Assembly: GCA_049964835.1 (NCBI GenBank)
Contig: JBMFWW010000016.1
Span: forward strand, 1 to 13,819
Reading direction: 5' to 3'
Source of the DNA: Candidatus Micrarchaeia archaeon
GTDB taxonomy: Archaea; Micrarchaeota; Micrarchaeia; Micrarchaeales; CABMGC01
Length of the DNA stretch: 13,819 nt
A program made the position numbers and the translations under genes. The notes below the pieces were generated by a model, which worked only from the letters and a program-made list of their open reading frames with translations, was not told the DNA's origin and searched no databases. How positions within the stretch are numbered: position 1 is the stretch's first letter; each line of letters opens with the position of its first letter. This document shows positions 1 to 13,819 of this stretch, in pieces.

Positions 1-196
1 GGTTAAAGTAAGACCATGAGCATATATAGTTTCCTGTTCCGCCAGTTATGCTTGCATTTATGGTTGTATTTTGTCCAGCATCCATTGCAGGCCTTTGCAC
101 ATTCAAGTTTACAGAAAGTGAACCTGCATAACTCAATCCTATCAATAAAGTTACAAATATCAAAACTGAAACAACACCGGATCTTCTAAAAACCAT
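1..196 (-). CDS. Secreted/cell-surface protein with Ig-like/PKD-type domain (5' part only; runs off left edge)
   Basis: Manual translation from ATG at 196 is open to position 1: MVFRRSGVVSVLIFVTLLIGLSYA-GSLSVNLNVQRPAMDAGQNTTINASITGGTGNYICSWSYFN. It has a signal-peptide-like N-terminus, a GGTGxYxxxW motif typical of PKD/Ig-like repeats, and a GGTG SD-like motif upstream. Not in the ORF track because no stop lies in the window. Confidence 0.75.
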   Translation of the reverse strand, partial: MVFRRSGVVSVLIFVTLLIGLSYAGSLSVNLNVQRPAMDAGQNTTINASITGGTGNYICSWSYFN

Positions 197-286
197 TATA
201 ACACCATTTTTGATTTAGGATTTAAGCTATAATAATACATATGTTAGCTTTATTTTATGTAGTATCCCGATTCAAACTACTAGGTT

Positions 287-817
287 CTAATACTTAATCA
301 AAGAGATTACGTCAATGTCGTTTAATCTTTCTCTTCCTTTGAGGAAGTTAAGTTCTATTACAAATATTGTAGTACTTACTACGCCACCTACCTTATTTAC
401 TAGCTTTGCAGCGGCTTCAATAGTGCCACCAGTAGCAAGAAGATCATCAACTATAACAACACGTGAGTTTTTTTCCATCGCATCGATGTGCATCTCTAAG
501 GTTTCAAAGCCGTATTCTAGCTTATACTCCTCGCTTATTGTTTTATAAGGCAGCTTGCCCTTTTTCCTAATAGGTATGAAGCCCTTACCCATTTTATATG
601 AAAGCGCAGCTCCAAATATAAACCCCCTAGACTCTATTCCAGCAAAGTAATCAAAATCAAGGTCTTTTAGTAAGAAAGTTAGCTCGTCAATACAAAGCTT
701 AAAAAGGACAGGATCTTTTAATATAGGTGTGATGTCTTTAAAAAGTATTCCTGGTTTAGGATAATCTGGTATATCACGTATGCTATCTCTTATTTTTTTT
801 ATGCCAATAGAATCCAT
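287..817 (-). CDS. apt: Adenine phosphoribosyltransferase
   Basis: IRDIPDYPKPGILFKDITP, GIESRGF, RKKGKLP, YKLEYG and the PRPP-binding VVIVDDLLATGGT motif. Confidence 0.97.
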   Translation of the reverse strand: MDSIGIKKIRDSIRDIPDYPKPGILFKDITPILKDPVLFKLCIDELTFLLKDLDFDYFAGIESRGFIFGAALSYKMGKGFIPIRKKGKLPYKTISEEYKLEYGFETLEMHIDAMEKNSRVVIVDDLLATGGTIEAAAKLVNKVGGVVSTTIFVIELNFLKGRERLNDIDVISLIKY

Positions 818-832
818 ACAAAATGGTTAACA

Positions 833-848
833 ATATAAATATTTATAT
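833..848. promoter_or_regulatory. Candidate divergent promoter core between apt and uppS
   Basis: Perfect 16-bp palindrome ATATAAATATTTATAT giving TTTATA boxes on both strands in the 90-bp divergent spacer. The AT-rich background lowers its significance. Confidence 0.3.
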
Positions 849-907
849 ATTTACATATTAGTAATCATAAGGTCAGTTCTGTTATTAATTGATTGAGAAA
901 CGATTAA

Positions 908-1618
908 ATGAAAATAAAGAATATTCCAAAAATAATCGCAATAATACCTGACGGAAATAGGCGCTGGGCTAAAAGTCATACATTTTCTATAATGAAAGGA
1001 TACGATTTAGGAGTTAAAAAGTTTATAGACTTTAGCGAGTGGTGTGTTTCATACGGCATAAACAATATAGCAGTGTGGGCATTTTCAACAGAGAATTTCT
1101 CAAGGGATTCAAAAGAGATCAAAACATTATTTTCTATATACAAAAAGGTAGCAAACGACAAAAAGCTTATCTCAAGATTACACAAGAACAAAACAAGGCT
1201 TAAAATAATAGGCAATAAAAAATTGCTCCCAAGGGATCTTCTTACCGCACTAAATAAGGTGGAAAAGGAAACGTCAAAGTACAAAGATCGTGTAATAAAT
1301 ATGCTTATTGCTTATGGGGGAAAGGATGATATAATGCATGCTGTAAAGGAAGTAATTACAAAAGTATCTTCAGAGGTTAATAGTATAAAAAAGCTAAACG
1401 AAGAGATTTTTTCACGATACTTAATATCGAACTCAATTAGTGATATAGATTTAATAATAAGGACATCTGGAGAAGAAAGATTATCGGGATTTATGCCTTG
1501 GCAGACCTCTTATTCTGAGCTCTATTTTTCAAAGAAATTATGGCCTGACTTTACTAAAAAGGATTTGGAAGCGGCACTGCAGGAATACAACAAAAGGCAA
1601 AGAAGATTCGGAAGGTAA
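908..1618 (+). CDS. uppS: cis-prenyltransferase (polyprenyl diphosphate synthase, UppS family)
   Basis: IAIIPDGNRRWAK, WAFSTENF, AYGGKDDI, DLIIRTSGEERLSGFMPWQ..YSELYF..LWPDF and C-terminal RRFG. Confidence 0.97.
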   Translation: MKIKNIPKIIAIIPDGNRRWAKSHTFSIMKGYDLGVKKFIDFSEWCVSYGINNIAVWAFSTENFSRDSKEIKTLFSIYKKVANDKKLISRLHKNKTRLKIIGNKKLLPRDLLTALNKVEKETSKYKDRVINMLIAYGGKDDIMHAVKEVITKVSSEVNSIKKLNEEIFSRYLISNSISDIDLIIRTSGEERLSGFMPWQTSYSELYFSKKLWPDFTKKDLEAALQEYNKRQRRFGR

Positions 1619-1627
1619 CGTGTTCAT

Positions 1628-3466
1628 ATGCCTGATGAAAAAAGGGATGTAACCCATTTTACAAAATATTTTGGATTAACAGTACCTGGACAGGGAAAGC
1701 TTACTATATTCCTAATACTTCTAGGAGCCTTTTCAGGAATAATAGCTGAGCTAATATTAAATACGCCATTGGGCTTATTTTATGTGCTAGCTTCGGGCTT
1801 TAGCCTTGGCGTAACAGTAATAACATTTCCAGGAATACTAACAGCATTTCTTCTAAAAGCAATGAAAAGAAATCTTAAGCTAAAACATGCGTTAATAGCA
1901 GTAATAGTCATAACTATTACATACGCCGCATTTTTCATAATAACCATCTTTACATATAATTTAACACATAGCTACGCTATAGCATACATACCAATTCTCC
2001 TTAGTGATGCTGGCATATACGGATACTGGTTTATAATCAATAGAATCGTATTAAATCAAAAAAAGAGCAGTGTAATAACAGCAGCGATACAGCCAACGCT
2101 TAATGCCTTAATCTTCATACCCGTAAGCTACTCAATCTTTGCAGCTAAAGTAAGTTATCTAAATGTGCTCTTTAAACTATGGACAGGTATCATAGTATTT
2201 ATGATATGCGGTTACATCGTTTTGTTCATAATGGACAGACCATCTAAAAAATTAGCAAGATTCAGCGGAGTAGATATGATGAGCTTCATGATAGGCCAGT
2301 GGCTATACGGTTCAAAAAACAATGCAATTTCATTTGATAAAATGGGCATAAAAAGAGATCTGCCGGTTTCTGTTCTTGCAATTAAAGGCACAAAAGGCTA
2401 CAAAGCCATATTCATAAAGCCAAACATACATTATGGACCAATATACGGTCTGGGTGGAAGCATGGCAACAGAGTATCTTGGCAGCAGAATAGAACATACC
2501 TATAAAGCCACGCCATTCATAATGCATGGAGCTGTAAATATAGAAGACAATCCAATTAACTCCTCGGATATTGGTATAATATGGAAAGAGGTTCAAAATA
2601 AAATAGATTCAAATTCAAAGTCATCTGGTACTGTGGGAACATTACAGATCTCAAAAAGCAAGGTAGATGAGTGCAAAGCAATAGGTATTAAAATAGGATC
2701 TATGGTGATAATAGGCTTGACAAAAGCACCTTACGTAACTGAAGATATAGACAGCGATATAGGGCTATACTATGAAGCGCTACCTTCTAAATACGGCCTT
2801 GAATGCATACTTATAGATGCTCACAACTCACGTTTTGAATCGGCAAATGCTGATGAGCTAAAAGGAGTTTACAAAGGCAGCAAGTATGTTAAAAAGTACT
2901 CTATGGCCATAGATCAAATACTAAATAAACTCAATAAAAATAAAAACAAGAAACTAATTTTTGGTGCATCTCATATAAAACTAAAGAATTTTATAAAAAA
3001 CAATGACATCGGCCCAGGATATATGAGTGTAGGTATATTTTCATCCAAAGTAGAGTCATTTTGTATGATATACTTAGATGCAAATAACATGGATCCTAAG
3101 TTAAGGTCAAAGCTTCTTTCCCACATATACAAAAAATATAAGCTAACCGCAGAACTCTTCACTACAGATACTCATGCAGTAAATACATTGGCATTTTCAG
3201 CAAGCAATGTCATAGGTAGATATACAAAGTACGAAGAGCTTGTTCCATATATAGATAAAGCAATTGAAAATGCAATATCATCTAAAGAAGAAGTAACTTA
3301 CTTGTTTTACAAACTTTCATTAAAAAACTTCAAAGTATGGGGCAAGGGTTCAGAAGAGCTTATTATGAACACTACAAGACAAATAATAAAAAGAGGCAAA
3401 AAAATAGTTCCATTTATAGTTGTAGCATGTTTTGTAATAGCCGCTTGGAGCATATATCTCGTATGA
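1628..3466 (+). CDS. DUF2070 family membrane protein (predicted membrane-associated lipid hydrolase, neutral-ceramidase-like)
   Basis: About 6 N-terminal TM segments, a soluble domain with HYGP..GGS, MHGA, ED, DAHNS, DANN and TTDTH motifs, and a single C-terminal TM. This architecture and the 612-aa size match archaeal DUF2070 proteins. Starts 9 bp after the uppS stop. Confidence 0.85.
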   Translation: MPDEKRDVTHFTKYFGLTVPGQGKLTIFLILLGAFSGIIAELILNTPLGLFYVLASGFSLGVTVITFPGILTAFLLKAMKRNLKLKHALIAVIVITITYAAFFIITIFTYNLTHSYAIAYIPILLSDAGIYGYWFIINRIVLNQKKSSVITAAIQPTLNALIFIPVSYSIFAAKVSYLNVLFKLWTGIIVFMICGYIVLFIMDRPSKKLARFSGVDMMSFMIGQWLYGSKNNAISFDKMGIKRDLPVSVLAIKGTKGYKAIFIKPNIHYGPIYGLGGSMATEYLGSRIEHTYKATPFIMHGAVNIEDNPINSSDIGIIWKEVQNKIDSNSKSSGTVGTLQISKSKVDECKAIGIKIGSMVIIGLTKAPYVTEDIDSDIGLYYEALPSKYGLECILIDAHNSRFESANADELKGVYKGSKYVKKYSMAIDQILNKLNKNKNKKLIFGASHIKLKNFIKNNDIGPGYMSVGIFSSKVESFCMIYLDANNMDPKLRSKLLSHIYKKYKLTAELFTTDTHAVNTLAFSASNVIGRYTKYEELVPYIDKAIENAISSKEEVTYLFYKLSLKNFKVWGKGSEELIMNTTRQIIKRGKKIVPFIVVACFVIAAWSIYLV

Positions 3467-3596
3467 CTTTATTTTTTATTGTCTTACTAATTTCTGTATA
3501 AAAATAAGCATCGTTGTGCACAATAAATCTATAAAAAAGCACAATTTTATAAATATGCATACGTATCATATTATAATAAATATGAAAGGTCAATAA

Positions 3597-4508
3597 ATGC
3601 AATATGAATTAATACTCTACGCAATTGCCTTCATACTTCTTATATACAAAATTATTTCAATAGAAGATATTAAAGAGATATCACTTTTTATACTATTTTT
3701 TACAATTGTATTTTTAATAGCAAATTATGAATTAATAGATCCTCTTAATCTGCTTTCTGGTTATATAATATTCAATGCGCTTATTTCATCCTATGGAACA
3801 AAGAAGCTTGAGTTTTTCACTCTTGCAGCGTTGCTTTTTATCTTTATAAATTATTTCAACGGTTTATTACTTATAACGACATCAATCTTTTTTGGAGGCA
3901 TAAGTTCTTACAATATATATCCTAGAAAAAAACACAACATAAAGAAAACAACATATCAAAAAGAGTTAAGAAGAAACACCTTTACAATACTTTCTGGCTT
4001 TATACTTTTAGCTCTTGTATTGTTTTTACAATTAAATATTTTTCTAGTTGTAAGCGTAATATTTCTGGTAGGAATTCTTCTGTTAAATACCTCATTAATT
4101 TCAAAAAATAATATCGTATCAAGGTTTTTTCAAATTCTTGAGCGAGACAATTTCACATTAGGACATGGCGCAATATGGCTTGGATTAGGCACATGCTTTG
4201 CAGTATCATTTCTTAGCTATAACGTTGCACTATCTGCAATATGTTTTATTTTCATAGCAGACTGTGTATCTCCAATAATAGGAATGAAGTATGGAGGTAT
4301 TAAATTATTCTACAACAAGAGAAAAAGCTATGCTGGAACAGCTTCATATTTTTTAACAGGATTAATTCTTTCGTACATTTTGATCGGAAATTACGCATTT
4401 TTAATAGCGGCGATAGCTGCAATAGTAGAAAGTCTTCCATTTTCACTTGATGACAACTTTGATGTTCCTTTTGCGATTTTTATATTATCCACATTAATTC
4501 CATTGTAA
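3597..4508 (+). CDS. SEC59/DGK1/VTE5-family CTP-dependent polyprenol/dolichol/diacylglycerol kinase-like membrane protein
   Basis: Polytopic membrane protein with ELRR, ER....G, AD..S..IG...G..KL.YN..KS.AG and AA.VE.LP..LDDN..VP motifs of the CTP_transf_1-like kinase family. Confidence 0.8.
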   Translation: MQYELILYAIAFILLIYKIISIEDIKEISLFILFFTIVFLIANYELIDPLNLLSGYIIFNALISSYGTKKLEFFTLAALLFIFINYFNGLLLITTSIFFGGISSYNIYPRKKHNIKKTTYQKELRRNTFTILSGFILLALVLFLQLNIFLVVSVIFLVGILLLNTSLISKNNIVSRFFQILERDNFTLGHGAIWLGLGTCFAVSFLSYNVALSAICFIFIADCVSPIIGMKYGGIKLFYNKRKSYAGTASYFLTGLILSYILIGNYAFLIAAIAAIVESLPFSLDDNFDVPFAIFILSTLIPL

Positions 4509-4550
4509 CATCCTCCTACAGCTAAAGCATGCGGTTTTACGCCTACTTTG
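4505..4550 (-). mobile_element. 46-bp non-autonomous IS200/IS605-like miniature element (PATE/MITE-like)
   Basis: Minus strand reads TTTAT|CAAAGTAGGCGTAAAACCGCATGCTTTAGCTGTAGGAGGATGTTAC|. It has a TTTAT target-like motif on the left, one imperfect hairpin with a TTTA loop, a GGAGGATGTYAC-type right end and no target duplication. Removing it leaves an intact CCA TTA TAA gene end. Confidence 0.7.
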
Positions 4551-4572
4551 ATAAAATTTCATTAAGTCATTA

Positions 4573-4778
4573 TCATTTGCCTCTCCACTTTGTCAAGTAT
4601 CCTGCAATTGCAAAATATACTAGCTCCCTATTACTAATATTAGTGCCATATACCAAAACATAGGACTAATACCAATTACACCTTGTTCTAGTACTGCAGC
4701 TGGAGTTGTTGGAAGTATCGATAAAATTAATAATATAGGTTTGGGAAGGTACGTGTAAGGAAAGAATGTCGGAGACAT
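4573..4778 (-). pseudogene. C-terminal remnant of an ABC-2-type transporter permease, frameshifted
   Basis: 4778-4620 reads MSPTFFPYTYLPKPILLILSILPTTPAAVLEQGVIGISPMFWYMALILVIGS*. A shifted frame at 4626-4573 continues ELVYFAIAGYLTKWRGK*. The PxFFP...LP......PTT pattern and terminal KWR resemble ABC-2 permease C-termini. The N-terminal part and ATPase partner are absent. Confidence 0.65.
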
Positions 4779-4782
4779 TACA

Positions 4783-5232
4783 TTAAATAATAACTCTTCC
4801 TGAACTATTTATTGTGTTATATGGTACTTCAAGAACATATTTTCCTTGAGCACAGGTTATATTTGTACTATACGGGATTGCATTTTTTATAAAACTTATA
4901 CTTCCATTACTATTTATCCATACCTGTTCTAGAGGTATTTTTGTATTCTCCATCCACATACATGCTTGTCGTGTAGAGTTAAAAACAAACAGCATGCCGT
5001 AAGCTCCATCAAAACTATTTCTGTACATCATTCCAGTAATTTGTTGGGTATAACTCTGGGCAATATATACGATTTTAGATGTGCCATTGCATCTGCTGCA
5101 ATTTAATATAGCTATAGATGCACTTGAATAATAAAAGTTCAAAGGCAGTAAATTCAAATAATAAAGTAATAAGAAAGAAATTGGAATTAAAACAATTAAA
5201 ATAATAAAAAGAAATAAGGATTTCTTTTTCAA
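4783..5232 (-). CDS. DUF192 family protein with N-terminal membrane anchor
   Basis: A......GMMYR......GMLFVF......MWMENTKIPL and KYVLEV motifs; TTG start 8 bp after the rps11 stop. Confidence 0.9.
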   Translation of the reverse strand: MKKKSLFLFIILIVLIPISFLLLYYLNLLPLNFYYSSASIAILNCSRCNGTSKIVYIAQSYTQQITGMMYRNSFDGAYGMLFVFNSTRQACMWMENTKIPLEQVWINSNGSISFIKNAIPYSTNITCAQGKYVLEVPYNTINSSGRVII

Positions 5233-5240
5233 GAAATCAA

Positions 5241-5750
5241 CTATACTCTTCTTCCTCTTCTACCTCCAGGTCTTTTTGTAGAGTCTGTTGGCATTGGCGT
5301 TACATCTTCTATGCTTCCTATTTTGAAGCCGCTTCTTGCTAATGCCCTTACTACTGCCTGTGCTCCTTGTCCTGGAGTTTTAGAGTTGTGTCCACCAGGA
5401 GCCCTTATTTTTATATTAATATGCGTAACTCCTTTTTCTATAGCTATAGCAGCTACTTTATACGCAGCCTGTGTTGCAGCATAAGGCGAACCTTCTTCAT
5501 GGTCCGTATCTACAACCATGCCTCCGCTTCCTACTGCAATAGTCTCTGCACCTGAAAGATCTGTGAGTGTTATTATTGTATTATTCTTAGATGAAAGAAT
5601 GTGTGCAACGCCCCATCTTATGCCCTTTTGTTTAAACTTTTCTTGTGCTGCAGCCATATCACTTTCGTATGAAACATCTCTTTTCTTGCTTGTGTTTTGC
5701 TGTTCATTCTTTACTTGCTTTTTTGCTGCTGATTTTTTTTCTTTTGCCAT
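5241..5750 (-). CDS. rps11: 30S ribosomal protein uS11 (archaeal type)
   Basis: [63 protein letters not shown]. Confidence 0.98.
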
Positions 5751-5754
5751 CTAA

Positions 5755-6309
5755 TCACTCATTTTTAACATCGGCTTCGGAGCCTTTGTCCGCTGCCTCA
5801 TTTATAGCATCATTTGTTTTAGGAGGAAGTGTATCTAATGAAAACTTTTTGTAATAATTTATTGCATTCTCCTCATTTTTCTTGACAAGATAGCTAGGGG
5901 ACTTTATCTTTCTTCCATTTATAGATATGAAGCCGTGCGTTATTAATTGCCTTGATTGTTTAATTGTTTTAGCTAAGCCTTTTTTATAAACTACCGTCTG
6001 CAACCTTCTATCTAACAAAGACTGTGGTTTTATTACTAGTATGTCGTCTGGTATTGCATTCTCACTAACAATATTATATGAAGCTAGCCTTGCTATTATC
6101 TCTTTACCTACCTTTTCTGTAGCATTTCCAGAAAGAACTTCACGTGCATTTCTTCTAACTCTTCTTATTTCACTTGCAGGCCTCCAAAGCTCTCCTAATT
6201 TTTTAAGACCATACTCTTTTTTTATCTTATGCTCTTCATCAATTCTCTCTTTATTCCACATTGAAGCTGGTCTTTCATATTTTTTCTTATTACGTTTAGG
6301 TGCTCCCAT
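5755..6309 (-). CDS. rps4: 30S ribosomal protein uS4 (archaeal type)
   Basis: MGAPKR..KKYERP...W, EYGLK...ELW and the S4 domain LDRRLQTVVYKKGLAKTIKQSRQLITHGFI. Confidence 0.97.
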   Translation of the reverse strand: MGAPKRNKKKYERPASMWNKERIDEEHKIKKEYGLKKLGELWRPASEIRRVRRNAREVLSGNATEKVGKEIIARLASYNIVSENAIPDDILVIKPQSLLDRRLQTVVYKKGLAKTIKQSRQLITHGFISINGRKIKSPSYLVKKNEENAINYYKKFSLDTLPPKTNDAINEAADKGSEADVKNE

Positions 6310-6313
6310 AATA

Positions 6314-6853
6314 TCACTTCTTTTCCTCTTTCTTTGCAGGTGCGGTTGCAGGCTGCGCCGACTTCTTCATTACTCCTATTGCTGCGCCCTTTCTGCCGGT
6401 AGATCTTGTTCTCTGTCCTCTTACCTTATGTCCGTATTGGTGTCTTGAACCCAACCATGTTTGAAGTTTTATTCCATTATCTACATCGAATCTTGTTTTA
6501 ACTATTAAATCAGTACCTACTACATGTATATTTTGTCCTATCTCCGAATCCTTATTTCTATTAAGCATGAATTTAGGAATATTATATTTAGAAGGTTCTT
6601 TTATTATCTCTTCAAGCTGGGCTAGCTGCTCATCGCTTAATGTACCTATAACTGTTTTAGGTTCAATGCCATACTTGTCTTTGTAAATCTTTGCCATAGC
6701 ATTTGCCATATTGTAGCCAATGCCTTTTATCTGGGTAAGTCCTCTAGCAATGCTATAACTACCGTTGATGTCTCTTCCAGCCATTCTAATAATGCTGACC
6801 TCTACCTTTTCCTTTTGCTTAGGCTCTTTGCCTTTCTGGTCCTTTTGATCCAT
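6314..6853 (-). CDS. rps13: 30S ribosomal protein uS13 (archaeal type)
   Basis: IIRMAGRDING, LTQIKGIG, IPKFMLNR.KD, RHQYGHKVRGQRTRSTGRKG; GGTG SD-like motif upstream. Confidence 0.97.
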   Translation of the reverse strand: MDQKDQKGKEPKQKEKVEVSIIRMAGRDINGSYSIARGLTQIKGIGYNMANAMAKIYKDKYGIEPKTVIGTLSDEQLAQLEEIIKEPSKYNIPKFMLNRNKDSEIGQNIHVVGTDLIVKTRFDVDNGIKLQTWLGSRHQYGHKVRGQRTRSTGRKGAAIGVMKKSAQPATAPAKKEEKK

Positions 6854-6903
6854 TCATGCACCGTTTAAATTGTAAATATGAAATAAAAACGCCAGGGCTG
6901 GGA

Positions 6904-6941
6904 TTTTCATAACACCTTTCGATTTTTTCAAAAAGCTTTAA
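6904..6941 (-). other. 38-nt tRNA intron at non-canonical position 59/60 (T-loop)
   Basis: Strict bulge-helix-bulge: T stem, 3-nt bulge AAT, 4-bp helix TTCA/TGAA, 3-nt bulge AAT, then a 13-position intron stem (one mismatch, three G-U pairs) closed by an A5 loop. Confidence 0.88.
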
Positions 6942-6974
6942 TTTGAACCCAGATGGCTCGAGGAGCCATACGCT

Positions 6975-6986
6975 GACAGGTTCAAT
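6975..6986 (-). other. 12-nt tRNA intron at canonical position 37/38
   Basis: Intron ATTGAACCTGTC. Relaxed BHB with central helix CTGG/CCTG (one U-U mismatch) and bulges AAA and TCA. Removal restores a 7-nt anticodon loop. Confidence 0.88.
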
Positions 6987-7050
6987 TTCCAGGCGTACGC
7001 GTTACCGGATTCTGCCACCCTGGCATTTTCCTATAATATACTCTAGCAAG

Positions 7051-7066
7051 ATTTAAAGCTGTTATT
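7051..7066 (-). promoter_or_regulatory. Putative BRE/TATA promoter of the tRNA-Ser-rps13 unit
   Basis: TTTAAA at 7052-7057 lies 28-33 nt upstream of the tRNA 5' end and is preceded on the minus strand by an A-rich stretch. Confidence 0.5.
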
Positions 7067-7256
7067 ACATATTGATTTGTTCATATTAATATTTAAAACT
7101 TGCTTTTATACTTACATATGGCAATAAAATACCAAACAAAGTTTTATTGATAAATTAATCCCCAAAAATTTTTGTATAGATGCATTTGTAAAAAATACAA
7201 AACAAATAGAAACATATATTAATCAATTTGTATAAATTTTACTTTTGTGTGATAAA

Positions 7257-7475
7257 ATGGAACAAATTAAAAAATCTAGTGAAATGCAAGTATCAATAGA
7301 AGTAGCGGCAGCAATAGTCAAAAATCATGCGCCAACCCTAAAAAGTACTGGTGAACATACAAAAGACGAAAAGAAAGAAGATAAGAAGCACGAAATACAT
7401 ACTGATGAGTGGAAGGCCTTGGTAAGAAGAGACGCCTTGAAGCTAGCAAGAGGCAAAAAACTACCTAAACGATAA
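7257..7475 (+). CDS. Small Lys/Glu-rich hypothetical protein (72 aa)
   Basis: ATG at 7257 is preceded by a GTGAT SD-like motif and is preferred over the TTG at 7245. Purine-rich coding-like composition; its stop directly abuts the lysS stop. Confidence 0.65.
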   Translation: MEQIKKSSEMQVSIEVAAAIVKNHAPTLKSTGEHTKDEKKEDKKHEIHTDEWKALVRRDALKLARGKKLPKR

Positions 7476-8915
7476 TTATTTTTCTTTTCGCATAGCCGGA
7501 AAGGCTATGACCTCTTTTATTGAAACATTATTTGTTAATATCATCGACAATCTATCTATTGATATTCCTAATCCTGCTGTCGGTGGCATACCATACTCTA
7601 TTGCTTCCAAGAACTCTTCATCAGATGGCGGAGCTTCATCGTCTCCTTTTTTCCTTTCTATTTCTTGTTCTTCGAACTTTTTTCTTTGCTCTATTGGGTC
7701 TGTTAATTCTGAGTAACAGTTTGCTTCTTCTCTGCCCGTAATATATAACTCAAATCTTTCGCTTAATTTTGGATTGCCTCTTTTATCCTTAGTCAATGGG
7801 CACATATATGCTGGAAAATCGACTACAAATGTGGGATTAAACAACTCAGGTTTTATATACTTATCAAAAAGTGCATCTGCAACATGCATGTTATTTTTTA
7901 TGCTCACATCAAGTTTTTCTTTTTCTGCTATTTTAACTGATTCCTCATCATTCATTGTAGAAACATCAACGTCTATTTTCTTTTTTAATTCCTCAACCCA
8001 GTAAATTCTTTTGAATGGTGGCGTAAAATCAAGTTCTTTGCCTTGGTACTCTATTTTATAAGTATTAAAAAGCATCTTTACCATACCACTTAAAAGCTCC
8101 TCAACCATCTTCATGTAATCTTCATAGTCCTTATATGATTCATAACATTCTATTTGTGTAAATTCAGGATTATGTGTTGAGTCTATATCCTCATTTCTGA
8201 AATCTTTAGAAACTTCATAAACCTTATCAAAGCCCCCAATTATCAATCTTTTAAGATAAAGCTCATCTGAAATTCTCAAAAATCGTTGTTCTTCTAAGGC
8301 ATTATGTTTTGTTATGAACGGCTTTGCATTAGCCCCACCATATACCTCTTGTAGTACAGGAGTTTCAAACTCTATATATCCTCTATTATCAAGAAAATCC
8401 CTCATGTACTTTAGTATTTTAGCTCTTGTCGTAAAGAACTCTTTAACTTTAGGATTACCTATTAAGTCCAAATGCCTTTTTCTATATCGTTGTTCAGTAT
8501 CCTTTAACCCATGGAACTTTTCAGGAAGTGTTCTCAACGACTTCGCAAGCATCTCTATTTCTACAGCTTCAATACTTATCTCTCCACGTGATGTTTTTGT
8601 TACTTTTCCAGTAATTCCTAAAATATCTGCAACGTCCGATAACTCTATTATTTTAAGATACTTCTCATTTATCGAATCTTTTTTAACTACTATCTGTATC
8701 TTTCCCTTGCTGTCTAAAAGATCAATAAAGTATATACCTCCCATCTTTCTTATTCCTACTATTCTGCCTGCAACGCTAGTATTTTTTCCTTCAAGCTTTT
8801 CAAAATTATTTATTATATATGCAGAATCATTTTCTTTTTTATAAGAATAAGGATATGGATTAACATTAATCTCTAAGAGTTTTTTAAGCTTCTCAACCTT
8901 AAATCCATCTACCAT
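7476..8915 (-). CDS. lysS: Lysine--tRNA ligase, class II (LysRS2)
   Basis: N-terminal OB-fold (VAGRI...RKMG..F.DL.D..GKIQ), RYRKRHLDL, GGANAKPF.T, motif 2 FRNEDIDSTHNPEFT and motif 3 YGMPPTAGLGISIDRL. Confidence 0.98.
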   Translation of the reverse strand: MVDGFKVEKLKKLLEINVNPYPYSYKKENDSAYIINNFEKLEGKNTSVAGRIVGIRKMGGIYFIDLLDSKGKIQIVVKKDSINEKYLKIIELSDVADILGITGKVTKTSRGEISIEAVEIEMLAKSLRTLPEKFHGLKDTEQRYRKRHLDLIGNPKVKEFFTTRAKILKYMRDFLDNRGYIEFETPVLQEVYGGANAKPFITKHNALEEQRFLRISDELYLKRLIIGGFDKVYEVSKDFRNEDIDSTHNPEFTQIECYESYKDYEDYMKMVEELLSGMVKMLFNTYKIEYQGKELDFTPPFKRIYWVEELKKKIDVDVSTMNDEESVKIAEKEKLDVSIKNNMHVADALFDKYIKPELFNPTFVVDFPAYMCPLTKDKRGNPKLSERFELYITGREEANCYSELTDPIEQRKKFEEQEIERKKGDDEAPPSDEEFLEAIEYGMPPTAGLGISIDRLSMILTNNVSIKEVIAFPAMRKEK

Positions 8916-8957
8916 TAAATCAGCTATATATAAGATTTTATTAAATTTAAAATTAAT

Positions 8958-8978
8958 AAACCTTCTCTATGAAGGTTT
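8958..8978. terminator. Inverted repeat, possible terminator or operator between the surface-protein gene and lysS
   Basis: AAACCTTC-TCTAT-GAAGGTTT is a perfect 8-bp stem with a 5-nt loop and T-rich sequence 3' of it on both strands. Confidence 0.35.
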
Positions 8979-9026
8979 TTAAAAACTATTCAATGCTTTG
9001 CTACTGTTAATCTAAACTATATGTCC

Positions 9027-11258
9027 TTAGTCTTCAGTATAATTAATTAGCTTAAACAGATCAGATTCAAAGCTGCTTATACTAATTGGCTGTTTGTTTT
9101 GAGGATATACTACTACCTCGACCATTTCGTTTCCGTATGGAGAAACAACACCTATTCCTCTTGCGCTATTCTGTGATACTTGTGTATTATTGATTAAAGT
9201 AACTGCATAATCATTGTTTAATGCTCCTGTTATTAATGTCAGATTCTGACCCAAGGATCTAAGTCCCGAATTTATATTTTCATAGCTAATACTTACATTC
9301 GAATCTGTATTAAAGACGCTATTTACTTGAATTATATTATAACCCTCTGAGCCAGTATAATTCTCTATTATTATTTGTGTATTTCCATTTGAAGTACCAC
9401 TTTTATAAACTTTTGGAGCTGTTGTCCAATTACTACCAAACACTGTTGAAAGTTCCTGCGTAGTTAAGAATGTTGCATTTTTAGGAATTGATATACTGCC
9501 TAACTTACTCATTATTCCTTTTTGTAGTGATGTCAAAGCAGAGTTGTATTTAGTTAAATTTATTGAACTTTTGTTTGTATAAAGACTACTTTGTATACTA
9601 TAATTATTGAAAGGACTAATCTCACCTAAAAGTTCTTCGCTCTCCCGTTTTGCGTTTAGTATATTTCCAAAAACTTCAGTATATGAAAGACCACCGTAAA
9701 ATGAGCCATATGTTATATTGAAACCAGAGTTACTTAATGAAGATAAACCCCCATTATAAAAGTTTGCAGTATCACTTCCATTTTTAAAAATCATTGTACT
9801 TATTGTAAAGTTTTCATTATTATTTGTAAAGTTTCCTTCCATATCTTTTATTGCGCCTGTTGGCATAGTTCCTGATGTTGAGTTAAATCCATTCAAAAAT
9901 CTCCATGAACCTCCAAAGTAATTATCTAGCGTTGTTGTGTTTATCAAGCTTTCAGTTGCGTTTGTTTTTATAGTCTGAGCGCCTGAAGCATTGCTTAATT
10001 TAGTGCTCGAGTTGCTTATCAATATTGGTGCATTTTCAAATCTTTCTGCCAAACTAATAAGTCCTGGAATAGCGTCAGTAGTTGTAGTATTTACCTTTTT
10101 ACTATAAAAATTAATTCCTAATATATAATTCCCATACAAAGACTCTAATCCAAGAATACCGTTAGAAATTACGTGTGTTGAATGTCCATTGTCTAAAGCG
10201 CCATTTATTCCAGAAAGATTGCTAACTACTCTATTGTAAAATTGCGTAGCGTTCTCCTTATTCTTAAAGTAAAGATAACCAAATGTTAAGTTGTAACCAC
10301 TGCCATTAGAAAAGTTAAAAGCAAATGAATAATTCACATTATATTTACTTTCTACGTTAGGTTGATTTATCTTTGAAGTGTTTAATAACTTCCAATTACC
10401 TCCGTAAATATTGTTTAAAAATAATGTTGAAACATTAGAAGGCGTTTGTAATGTGGCAGTAGCGTTTTCTAAAGAATTCATAACGTTTACAAACTTCGGC
10501 ATAGACTGTGCTATATTAATATTATTATTTTTATAAACTGCAATTTCAAGAACATAGTTGTTGAATGGACTTACTACTATAGAAATGTTTTGATTATTTG
10601 TAGATGGGATCTGAAATCCAAAAATCGGGGAGTCACTATTTAATGTATAATTCAGAGTTATTATTTTAGGTATATTTCTAATATTAGTACTTTCTATATC
10701 ATAAAATTCACTTGCATTAATAGTACTATTAAATGTTAACTTCGTAATTGAAAGTTGATAACCTGTAGTGTTGCTGTAATTGTATGTTATTCCTCTTTTT
10801 ATGCCATTAGTTGGTATACTAATAAGAACATTTGAGTTCTGGAAGTTCCATGTTCCCCCAAAATATCTATCTAACAATGTCAGATTGTTTTGAATACCGA
10901 TACTTGTTTGTTGTATTGTATTAGTTTGTGTAGTAATGCTTGTTAATGGGGTAGTTGTTGAAGTTAACGAGGTTGTTTTTTGTGAAGTATTCTGCGCATT
11001 GTTATTCTTTGATGTTTGAGTAGTACTTACTGGTGTTGAATTAACAACTACAGTTGTGGTACTTTTTATAGTTATCGTACCTAATGACTTACTTATATTT
11101 GAATTAGTGTTAGATTGAGCTCCAGAAGATACTCCTGTGCTATTTTTCAATTTAGATGAATTATTACTGTTATTATTAGTTATCAAAAATATGCTTTCTA
11201 AAACTAAAGCCACAACCAAAATTACTACTACTGCTTTAAGCAAAACATTTTTTTCCAT
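9027..11258 (-). CDS. Large membrane-anchored, Asn/Ser/Thr-rich surface (glyco)protein with four internal repeats
   Basis: N-terminal hydrophobic anchor, about 95-aa S/T/N/Q-rich stalk, many N-x-S/T sequons and four ~155-aa repeats. Confidence 0.85.
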   Translation of the reverse strand: MEKNVLLKAVVVILVVALVLESIFLITNNNSNNSSKLKNSTGVSSGAQSNTNSNISKSLGTITIKSTTTVVVNSTPVSTTQTSKNNNAQNTSQKTTSLTSTTTPLTSITTQTNTIQQTSIGIQNNLTLLDRYFGGTWNFQNSNVLISIPTNGIKRGITYNYSNTTGYQLSITKLTFNSTINASEFYDIESTNIRNIPKIITLNYTLNSDSPIFGFQIPSTNNQNISIVVSPFNNYVLEIAVYKNNNINIAQSMPKFVNVMNSLENATATLQTPSNVSTLFLNNIYGGNWKLLNTSKINQPNVESKYNVNYSFAFNFSNGSGYNLTFGYLYFKNKENATQFYNRVVSNLSGINGALDNGHSTHVISNGILGLESLYGNYILGINFYSKKVNTTTTDAIPGLISLAERFENAPILISNSSTKLSNASGAQTIKTNATESLINTTTLDNYFGGSWRFLNGFNSTSGTMPTGAIKDMEGNFTNNNENFTISTMIFKNGSDTANFYNGGLSSLSNSGFNITYGSFYGGLSYTEVFGNILNAKRESEELLGEISPFNNYSIQSSLYTNKSSINLTKYNSALTSLQKGIMSKLGSISIPKNATFLTTQELSTVFGSNWTTAPKVYKSGTSNGNTQIIIENYTGSEGYNIIQVNSVFNTDSNVSISYENINSGLRSLGQNLTLITGALNNDYAVTLINNTQVSQNSARGIGVVSPYGNEMVEVVVYPQNKQPISISSFESDLFKLINYTED
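9030..10883 (-). repeat. Four diverged protein-level tandem repeats of about 152-163 aa
   Basis: Repeat starts are LLDRYFGGTW, FLNNIYGGNW, TLDNYFGGSW and ELSTVFGSNW (Trp at aa 137, 289, 452, 611). Each later has an S(P/L)(F/Y)(N/G)N(Y/E) motif, and repeats 1-3 share F...N.S/T..A..FY-like segments. Confidence 0.8.
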
Positions 11259-11307
11259 ACTATCAATATATCTTATAAGTTTTTAAACATTAATATTATA
11301 TTTTAAT

Positions 11308-11664
11308 TTACAAGAGTTTAAAAGAAGATGTAAACTCATCTATTTCTTTTCCTTTCCATGGCCCTACTCCTAATGTGGTTATAGTTCCTGGGGGCAATTG
11401 GGTATGTCCAGCATCAGCTACAAGTGCACAAGGTATGTCTTTATATTTAAATGCTTGAAATAGTTTTTTTAATACAGCATCGTTGTCTACTTTAAGAACT
11501 ATCTTTTTTTCTCCGGTATCAAGCCATTCCTTAGCTATTTTTTTGTCCTTTTTTTCAGCCTCAAAATAAGCCATCAAAGATGCATGAGCAACCTGCGCAG
11601 CAGTTTTACCCTTGCCCATTACGATATCATTTCTTACTAATATTGCCTGTTTTATCTCTTCCAT
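11308..11664 (-). CDS. pth2: Peptidyl-tRNA hydrolase Pth2 (archaeal/eukaryotic type)
   Basis: KQAILVRND..MGKGK.AAQVAHA, W...G.KKIVLKV, DAGHTQLPPGT.T.LGVGP. Confidence 0.97.
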   Translation of the reverse strand: MEEIKQAILVRNDIVMGKGKTAAQVAHASLMAYFEAEKKDKKIAKEWLDTGEKKIVLKVDNDAVLKKLFQAFKYKDIPCALVADAGHTQLPPGTITTLGVGPWKGKEIDEFTSSFKLL

Positions 11665-11671
11665 ATATTAA

Positions 11672-12067
11672 TCAATCCTTTCTAAGAAACTTCTTTATAG
11701 AGCCACTTAACTCTTCTATTTTTTTAACTTCTGACATTTCCTTTTTATCTAATTTTTTTCCAGGTTCTGCAATACTTCTCTCTATTGCTTCTAACATATC
11801 AATCCAATCTTCAGCATCGTCTTTTATTATATTTAATATACTTTGATCCTTTGATAGCAAATCAAGTGCAGAAATTAATTTTTTATTATCTTCTAAATTT
11901 TCACCAGAATCTAATCTTTTGGTTATATGTTCTTTTAGTTCTTTTATCTCTCCATAATTAACAGTTTTATTAATCTCAGTTACTTTTTCCATGCTTCTAG
12001 CAAAACTTTTTATTGAGTCGTAAAATCTTTTTATTAAATCATTCAAAGAAAGTTTTTCAAAGTTCAA
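11672..12067 (-). CDS. Hypothetical protein, charged and probably alpha-helical
   Basis: 131-aa ORF with TTG start, packed 7-8 bp from its neighbours on the same strand; K/E/L/I-rich heptad-like pattern; no recognised motif. Confidence 0.75.
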   Translation of the reverse strand: MNFEKLSLNDLIKRFYDSIKSFARSMEKVTEINKTVNYGEIKELKEHITKRLDSGENLEDNKKLISALDLLSKDQSILNIIKDDAEDWIDMLEAIERSIAEPGKKLDKKEMSEVKKIEELSGSIKKFLRKD

Positions 12068-12075
12068 TTAATCCC

Positions 12076-12600
12076 CTACCTTCTATACTTTTTAAGTTCT
12101 GATCTTTTCATTAATACATTTGTACCTATTCCTACCCCTAATGCGGCTACGCCTAGTGCAAACGGTATAAAACTACTGCTATCAATATTCTTTAAAGAAT
12201 TGTTAAAAGCACCGTTTAAAAAAGCATTATATGTTGCACAACCTTCCAAAGCCATATACGTTGCAGTTGAAAGTATACTTATATTTGACAATCTCTCAAT
12301 TTTTTTATTTTGAGTACTTATCCCTTCATAAAATCTTTTTACTGAAGAGTCTAGAACCTTTTTTGCAATAGGTATAGAAAAAAGAGCAACAGAAACCGCA
12401 TCTAAATATGTAAACTTTGTGAAGTCTTTATCCTTTGATTTTATTATAATATCCATAGTTGTGGATAAAACTCCAAAAGATATAGCAACATTATTGCATA
12501 AAAAGTTTGCAACGTTGTTAATTTTATCCTCACTCTCTATATCTTTTTTTTCTTGACTTCCTACAAAATTGTTCCTGTTATTATTTCTGTTAAATTTCAT
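12076..12600 (-). CDS. Hypothetical membrane protein
   Basis: 174-aa ORF with 3-4 moderately hydrophobic segments, an Asn-rich N-terminus and a basic C-terminus; first gene of the minus-strand run, divergent from priS. Confidence 0.7.
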   Translation of the reverse strand: MKFNRNNNRNNFVGSQEKKDIESEDKINNVANFLCNNVAISFGVLSTTMDIIIKSKDKDFTKFTYLDAVSVALFSIPIAKKVLDSSVKRFYEGISTQNKKIERLSNISILSTATYMALEGCATYNAFLNGAFNNSLKNIDSSSFIPFALGVAALGVGIGTNVLMKRSELKKYRR

Positions 12601-12727
12601 TTACTCAGTTTATTTAGATAATTATCAATATAAATATCTATATTATTTGCTATTATAAACTATACTATATATAATTATATAAAAGGCATAAGCAACACGT
12701 TAATTTTTTAAAGAATAAGGGATTTTA

Positions 12728-13819
12728 GTGGAATTAAACAAGTACCAAACAAGGGATTACATATCAAAATTAATTGCGGAGTACTATTCAAAATCAGATA
12801 ATTTTTATCCTGATAAAATACCAGAAAGAGAGTTTGGAGCAGGGGATTTTGATACAAAGATAAGAATAAGACATCTTTCCTTTATAAATAAAAATGATTT
12901 CAAAGAGTACTTAATTAAAAAGGCACCACCATTTATTTCCTGTTCAACCGCTTTTTATAAACATCCCTCTTTTAGACCAATGGAAAATAAAGAATGGCTT
13001 GGTTCTGAGCTAGTGTTTGATCTTGACGCTACAGATATGAATTTGGAATGCCAGAAAAAACATTCTACCTCTTGGGTGTGTGATATATGCTTAGATTCTG
13101 TAAAGTCAGAAACATTAAAGCTAATAGAGGAATTTTTAATACCTGATTTTGGCTTTTCAAAAAATGAAATAGAAGTAAACTTCAGCGGCAACCGAGGTTA
13201 TCATGTTCATATTAAAAAAGAAAGTGTATACTCTCTAGACGCAAATGCTAGAAAGCAGATAAGTGATTATATAACTGGAAACGGAATAAACTTTGATAGC
13301 TTTTTTGTGATGGAAGAGCTACGTAAAGGAACAGGAAGAAGCAGTAAAAAATTAAAAGGACCGAAGAGTAGCGATGGTGGCTGGTCTGGAAAGATAGCAA
13401 AAAACTTCATAAAGCAATTAGAAGCGGGTCCAGAAAGCTTAATCAAGCTAGGTCTTGAAAGTACTCTAGCAAAGAATCTTTATAAGAAAAAATCATTAAT
13501 AGAATTAGGCATAAACAATGGCAATTGGGATATGGTTTATATTAAAAATAAGAAAGAGTTCTGGGAAGATATTTTAAAAACACAGTCTATATATCAAAGT
13601 GATAAGATAGATCAAAATGTTACTAACGATCCTTCACATATGGTGCGTTTACCTAACACCATACATGGAGAGACTGGTTTGATATCAAAAAAAATATCGG
13701 TTAGCGATCTTAATCTATTTGATCCGATGTCTGATACCATAGCTTTCGATACTAAAACTATAGAAGTAATAGCAAACACGAATCAAGAATTAGTTATGAA
13801 TAAACAAACACTTGCGATA
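12728..13819 (+). CDS. priS: DNA primase small (catalytic) subunit PriS (3' end beyond window)
   Basis: Manual translation from GTG at 12728 is open for 364 codons: EREFG, RHLSF, WLGSELVFDLDATD (DxD), the C...H....C..C zinc motif, FSGNRGYHVHI and IDQNVTNDPSHMVRLPNTIHG.TG. Confidence 0.96.
   Translation, partial: MELNKYQTRDYISKLIAEYYSKSDNFYPDKIPEREFGAGDFDTKIRIRHLSFINKNDFKEYLIKKAPPFISCSTAFYKHPSFRPMENKEWLGSELVFDLDATDMNLECQKKHSTSWVCDICLDSVKSETLKLIEEFLIPDFGFSKNEIEVNFSGNRGYHVHIKKESVYSLDANARKQISDYITGNGINFDSFFVMEELRKGTGRSSKKLKGPKSSDGGWSGKIAKNFIKQLEAGPESLIKLGLESTLAKNLYKKKSLIELGINNGNWDMVYIKNKKEFWEDILKTQSIYQSDKIDQNVTNDPSHMVRLPNTIHGETGLISKKISVSDLNLFDPMSDTIAFDTKTIEVIANTNQELVMNKQTLAI

Follow-up and report, generated by a model that had tools for sequence, protein, structure and literature searches.

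A 46-bp sequence that supplies the stop codon of an archaeal membrane protein gene is probably a terminal-only scar of an IS605-type element

The DNA analysed here (the window) is a stretch of 13,819 nucleotides, contig JBMFWW010000016.1 (positions 1 to 13,819, forward strand) of the Candidatus Micrarchaeia archaeon assembly GCA_049964835.1. It is contig C16 of this 806-kb assembly (32% GC, 46 contigs), and its ribosomal proteins have an archaeal look by eye. The gene of interest is an open reading frame of 303 codons (3597-4508, plus strand) encoding a membrane protein of 303 aa, with homologs in 39 of the 41 genomes searched, its own genome counted. The preliminary description had called it a kinase gene. 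The automatic names of its Atlas neighbours, which are commonest in Microcaldota, are dolichol kinase or cytidylyltransferase-like, but the product has no match in Pfam, NCBIfam or PDB, and the name is kept here as a lead from the Atlas neighbours only. Between the element described below and a DUF192 gene there are about 230 bp (4556-4780, minus strand) that read as a short hydrophobic frame interrupted by a frameshift; they are missing from two close orthologs, where the genes abut. The window also encodes a 743-aa protein rich in Asn, Ser and Thr (9027-11258, minus strand), with an N-terminal membrane anchor, repeated domains and no Pfam match.

The host gene ends in CCA TTG TAA, and the G (4505) and the TAA (4506-4508) are, on the gene strand, the first four bases of a 46-bp sequence (4505-4550) oriented on the minus strand. 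The third base of the last codon and the stop codon therefore belong to this sequence. Removal of 4505-4550 in silico, using a script, left the end of the protein (TLIPL*) unchanged, confirming that the deletion rebuilds the same P-L-stop. On the minus strand, the 46 bp follow directly after TTTAT (4555-4551) and close with TTAC. The TTTAT lies outside the element and is the putative target and left cleavage site; on the gene strand it reads ATAAA and would hold the original TAA stop. Within the element, a 12-nt left-end leader (4539-4550) is followed by AAAA (4535-4538), the predicted left-end guide for TTAT, by a single imperfect hairpin with a TTTA loop (4515-4534), and by a 10-nt right-end tail (4505-4514), which gives G plus the stop on the gene strand.

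BLAST with the 46-mer detected further copies in the same genome (E values of 5.9e-9, 3.7e-7, 2.3e-5 and 3.5e-4), and ungapped scans detected copies as well. A profile built from eight seed copies recovered these eight, which match by construction, and one more (C8:14004, E 0.003); in the reversed genome, used as a control, the best match had an E value of 1.2. Altogether there are nine dispersed copies of 45-47 bp, as the preliminary description had anticipated, with shared boundaries and unrelated flanks. The left junction is TTTAT in seven copies, ATTAT in one and TTTAA in one (TTAT in 8/9), in agreement with the constant TTTAT junction that had been predicted. The right ends are TCAC (seven copies), TCAA (one) and TTAC (one). 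The family form is TCAC (G-TGA on the gene strand), and TTAC is present in the window copy only. We considered TTAC as a functional variant and rejected it, as the AAAA guide of the window copy misfits TTAC at the last position. The copies differ pairwise at 4-18 positions (median 11) and no two are alike, whereas only 0-1 differences over 47 bases separate the right ends of five tnpB elements in this genome. Target duplication is absent, judged without a true empty allele, as the flanks differ on both sides in the nine copies; there are no terminal inverted repeats. The three closest orthologs of the window gene (57-60% protein identity) lack the element and their downstream DNA does not align; a DNA alignment of the ortholog 3' regions was misaligned and uninformative. 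Neither an empty allele nor a full element at the window site was seen among the ortholog loci compared.

The hairpin is not the minimum-energy fold of the window copy (DNA z -0.97; RNA z -0.25 on the mRNA strand). In the less decayed copy C1:156794 it folds on the element strand (z -3.35, 0/200 shuffles), and it folds as DNA in four of the nine copies. The subterminal imperfect hairpin is therefore present in the family and decayed in the window copy, and the single hairpin with a TTTA loop described for the window stands for the family but not for this copy. The suggestion that the insertion adds a hairpin to the 3' end of the mRNA is not supported, as the window copy folds no better than shuffles.

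The genome harbours three tnpB matches and three partial matches to tnpA pieces, and its tnpB elements end in the same tail as the 46-bp family. A 19-base left-end pattern was matched in 7 other genomes among the 117 of the family. One of the related genomes, G081, carries two-hairpin elements of about 190 bp with a TTTAT target and the same leader type (also shared with two-hairpin elements in G015); their right hairpin differs by one base from the consensus of the 46-bp family. In another, G095, this left-end type is followed by the start of an open reading frame that resembles tnpB by eye and is cut by the contig end. The ends are thus homologous to those of tnpA/tnpB-bearing elements, the right tail as on the tnpB elements of the same genome and the left end as in G095 and G081. 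Together with the nine copies, the matching two-ended elements of the relatives support the earlier proposal of an IS200/IS605 origin, with left- and right-end signatures fused around one hairpin. Full tnpA/tnpB elements with the same ends were recovered in part, as the shared right tail and the left end in G095, but no full-length parent of the exact family was found in the assembly, where all seven true left-end matches are scars and where, with 46 contigs, IS copies break at contig ends.

Guides and cleavage sites of these elements pair by a simple rule: guide base 1 with site base 2, guide base 2 with site base 1, and guide base 4 with site base 4. The rule agrees with the guide/target covariation observed here and with the AAAG/TTAC pair of IS608, as given in the accessible text of PMC5027513. 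Right-end matches amounted to 348 in 106 of 248 genomes, and 142 outside this genome were examined, among the 150 matches listed. GAAG, which fits TCAC, precedes the hairpin in 114 of 139 distinct right-end junctions among the matches listed. Nine terminal-only copies in relatives, again among the matches listed, have the guide/target pairs AAAT/TTAA (seven) and AAAA/TTAT (two); their guides fit their own target and not TCAC. GAAG is missing from all these nine copies, from 9/9 family copies of this genome and from 11/11 scars of the sister family described below. A mobile two-ended PATE has two hairpins, each with a matching guide, and the copies of this genome have one hairpin and no GAAG. 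The scar thus appears to retain the left guide and to have lost the right one and, as no copy carries a right-end guide, the 46-bp unit is probably no longer mobile.

The published spacing of IS608 puts 19 nt between the left site and the left hairpin that follows it, and 10 nt between the right hairpin and the right site after it; the cleavage sites pair with four-base guides found 5' of each hairpin (PMC3201880, accessible sections). In the present family, the target is separated from the hairpin by 16-17 nt, and the end lies 10 nt beyond the hairpin. As described for IS608 and ISGst2 in the accessible parts of PMC3201880, PMC5027513 and bioRxiv 2023.03.14.532601, the left cleavage site is outside the element, the right one is inside, and a four-base guide lies 5' of the hairpin; the TTTAT motif is shared between ISGst2 and the window family (bioRxiv 2023.03.14.532601). 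By contrast, IS608, ISGst2 and the PATEs of ISGst2 are described as mobile and as having two hairpins, each with its own guide, whereas the scar has one hairpin and the left guide only.

The reading that we favour, with a probability of roughly 80%, is that the 46 bp are one of nine diverged terminal-only scars of an IS605/IS1341-type element, in which the DNA between the similar end hairpins was deleted, and which is probably immobile now. Following the mechanism of the family, insertion by TnpA would have brought a two-ended element into the minus strand, 3' of TTTAT and without duplication. Insertion at the TAA of the gene would have swapped stop for stop, with the third base of the last codon changing from A to G as the only other effect. 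A deletion between the left and right hairpins, a step for which the sister family offers support, would have fused the right tail with the leader and the left guide. Having lost the right-end guide, the scar would then have stayed in place and decayed; the TAA of the window is most simply explained as a TGA after one transition.

Such terminal-only remnants are already known, having been published as terminal-only PATEs (the 52-bp forms of HqIRS46 and ISHwa23) in Haloquadratum walsbyi (Dyall-Smith et al. 2011, PMC3119063), and it is in this form that the collapsed element proposed in the preliminary description is supported. According to the accessible text of that work, the 52-bp PATEs were formed by deletion between the end palindromes; full and collapsed alleles occur at the same sites in two strains, six strain-specific insertions were found only as the 52-bp form, and mobility was left undecided. 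Judged from this published description, the present copies are alike in being about 50 bp long, in having both termini fused around one palindrome with loss of the core and of the other palindrome, in containing no ORF, in deriving from IS605-type elements by inter-palindrome deletion, and in having neither inverted terminal repeats nor target duplication. They differ in host group, in sequence and in length (45-48 bp). Moreover, the end hairpins here share short blocks only, whereas those of the H. walsbyi PATEs share a perfect 19-22-bp repeat; full and collapsed alleles sharing a site are reported in H. walsbyi but not seen here (one genome per species, and no sequencing run listed); and stop-codon replacement is observed here, with no mention of it for the H. 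walsbyi PATEs in the accessible text of PMC3119063.

The formation of scars was analysed in a young sister family of the related genome G129; its target is TTAA and not the TTTAT of the window family, so that the junction-class test given here applies to the sister family. Two loop-flanking positions separate its hairpins: they are A/T in 5/5 left hairpins and G/C in 14/15 right hairpins. The 11 scars are A/T (eight), A/C (two) and G/C (one), with no G/T. These classes match single crossovers at three places and thus at least three separate collapses, which indicates that collapse in place probably occurred repeatedly in G129. Two pairs of scars are identical at different sites; mobility would give the same, and these pairs leave room for some later mobility. 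The junction classes bear on the question raised in 2011, whether such remnants moved as a unit or arose by repeated collapse, and favour repeated collapse.

It is accordingly unlikely that TnpA mobilises the single-hairpin unit of 46-48 nt as such, cutting the right end by means of a relaxed guide or of a guide from another element end. The precise ends of most copies would fit such movement, as would the share of scars among the G129 right ends (11/27), the identical pairs, and the fact that every true left-end match of the family in this genome is a scar; the possibility is also raised in the accessible text of PMC3119063. However, the left-type guide fails two of the three pairings with TCAC by the rule given above, at least three collapses are needed for the three junction classes, and the copies in this genome all differ from one another. 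Furthermore, in the published accounts, as far as accessible, both ends were present in the reconstituted excision complex of IS608, and ISGst2 had to have intact ends to be excised. The claim of a minimal unit mobilised by TnpA is not supported, given the missing right-end guide, the divergence of the copies and the three G129 junction classes. Also unlikely is a broader idea, in which a 47-nt single-hairpin unit would be the smallest element that TnpA mobilises and the IS605 cleavage sites would have kept their T-T/C-A-N chemistry because target and right end read as stops in one frame, small gene-dense archaeal genomes thus gathering such units as permanent gene ends.

Silent stop replacement can be explained from the ends, because the target TTAT and the end TCAC, read on the opposite strand, give A-TAA and G-TGA in one and the same frame. 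Of 14 codons in the last position, 13 keep their meaning after the A-to-G change, as do 8 of 16 after the T-to-G change expected with TTAA targets. Three of the nine copies end genes: the window gene, a 336-aa T2SSF-domain gene in C14 and a 446-aa amino-acid permease gene in C8. Each of the three keeps its protein end when the copy is removed, and the C14 and C8 genes have close orthologs that finish in the same residues, so the silent replacement proposed for the window gene extends to two others. We found no published statement on silent stop replacement by IS605-type ends in the literature covered, which leaves out most subscription journals.

The frequency of ends at stops was compared with a null obtained from this genome with a crude ORF caller, in which 4.6% of the non-genic TTAT sites and 2.5% of the TTAA sites are at stops; this null comes from one genome, counts every intergenic site as tolerated, and is applied to related genomes that are not independent. 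Without the window copy, 2/8 copies of this genome are at stops (p 0.049 at the 4.6% null), compared with 0/11 of the other ends in this genome. A first count in relatives (14/138 ends, p 0.005 to 1e-5) was rejected, as six of the frames (L068, L074, L075, L079, L117 and L212), judged by overlapping frames and Pfam, were antisense shadows of opposite-strand genes. After their removal, 8/138 of the relatives' ends examined are at stops (p 0.30 and 0.025 with the two nulls). Adding the 27 G129 ends and eight new scars gives 11/173 (p 0.17 with the 4.6% null and 0.005 with the 2.5% null), one of the 11 (L254) resting on 87 codons to a contig end. Among the relatives' terminal-only scars, 3/28 are at stops (p 0.14 and 0.034). 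Since insertion at any intergenic site counts as tolerated in the null, an excess may reflect nothing more than survival, and a fair reading is that stop replacement is a by-product with a small survival excess at most.

The preliminary description had gone further, likening the element to a REP-type repeat family. REP/BIME sequences are short palindromes that lie between genes, often near gene ends, and are related to the ends of IS200/IS605 elements; these features are shared by the present family. Nevertheless, here there are nine decaying copies and not hundreds, with IS-type cleavage sites and a traceable parent, and high copy number and a stable conserved hairpin are not observed (4-18 differences, weak folds). 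A selected, 'stop-codon-safe' family enriched at gene ends and giving mRNAs a 3' hairpin is therefore very improbable. The three copies ending genes in this genome, the excess of the relatives' ends over the 2.5% null, and other hairpin remnants at the stops of two orthologs (that of the window gene in G016 and that of the C14 gene in G001) are in its favour. On the other hand, 11/173 fits the 4.6% null, the relatives' scars stand at 3/28 (p 0.14 and 0.034) and the other ends of this genome at 0/11, the hairpin is in decay and shows no fold on the mRNA strand, and the element is absent from the three closest orthologs. A chance match, or conservation of an ordinary 3' sequence, is refuted as an explanation of the 46 bp by the eight further copies with the same ends at unrelated sites and by the absence of the 46-mer after the stop in all 19 homolog loci, even though the window copy, taken by itself, does not fold better than shuffled sequences and Rfam gave no match of note (one chance-level match, E 3.8, outside the element).

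With the scars described here, the range of terminal-only PATEs comes to include a group of archaea with small genomes, and the target/right-end pair accounts for the way in which IS605-type ends replace a stop codon silently. For annotation, the scars mark past IS605 activity and alter the identity of stop codons but not the proteins.

Details of the two remnants in orthologs are as follows. In the G016 ortholog of the window gene (L026, 1/19 loci), a different IS605-type single-hairpin remnant gives the stop right after the last codon, and its other side follows TTCAT. In the G001 ortholog of the C14 gene (L091, 1/5 loci), a 41-bp hairpin remnant with another leader and a GAAG guide is at the same stop as the C14 copy and may or may not be the same old insertion. 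Both cases hint at a retention of old scars where these provide the stop of a gene.

Beyond this genome, the strict terminal-only pattern was present in 13 of 401 genomes of the phylum. A metagenome scan with the 19-base left end gave eight loci, none of which runs on into hairpin and tail, and a scan of a genome collection for fused ends gave four loci, two of them judged chance. The other two, in a Desulfobacteraceae MAG (L054:1501-1551) and in Alicyclobacillus sp. ALC3 (L056:1501-1551), have the same terminal-only anatomy with a TTTAT target, and the Alicyclobacillus copy closes a putative 162-codon open frame.

Several other elements were observed. A second collapsed form of about 60 bp is present in this genome (C5:18631-18573 and C3:47194-47135, minus strand). 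It consists of the left leader, the left guide and half a hairpin, fused to a complete right end that has a guide as well, with an identical junction in both copies and, as both guides are retained, it could be mobile. An internally deleted tnpB element of 533 bp (C1:140512-141044) has both ends intact; its target is TTTAA, and a short ORF precedes tnpB. A tnpA-only element (C1:1-486, C4:1-218 and C1:95100-95260) has the right end TCAT and the guide GATA; its C1 copy is split by a frameshift, the copy at C1:95100 is cut by another repeated element, and its left end is not assembled. Finally, G129 carries two-ended gene-less elements of 168-355 bp (L275, L278, L279 and L282-L286) with an extra internal hairpin-like insert in the left hairpin.
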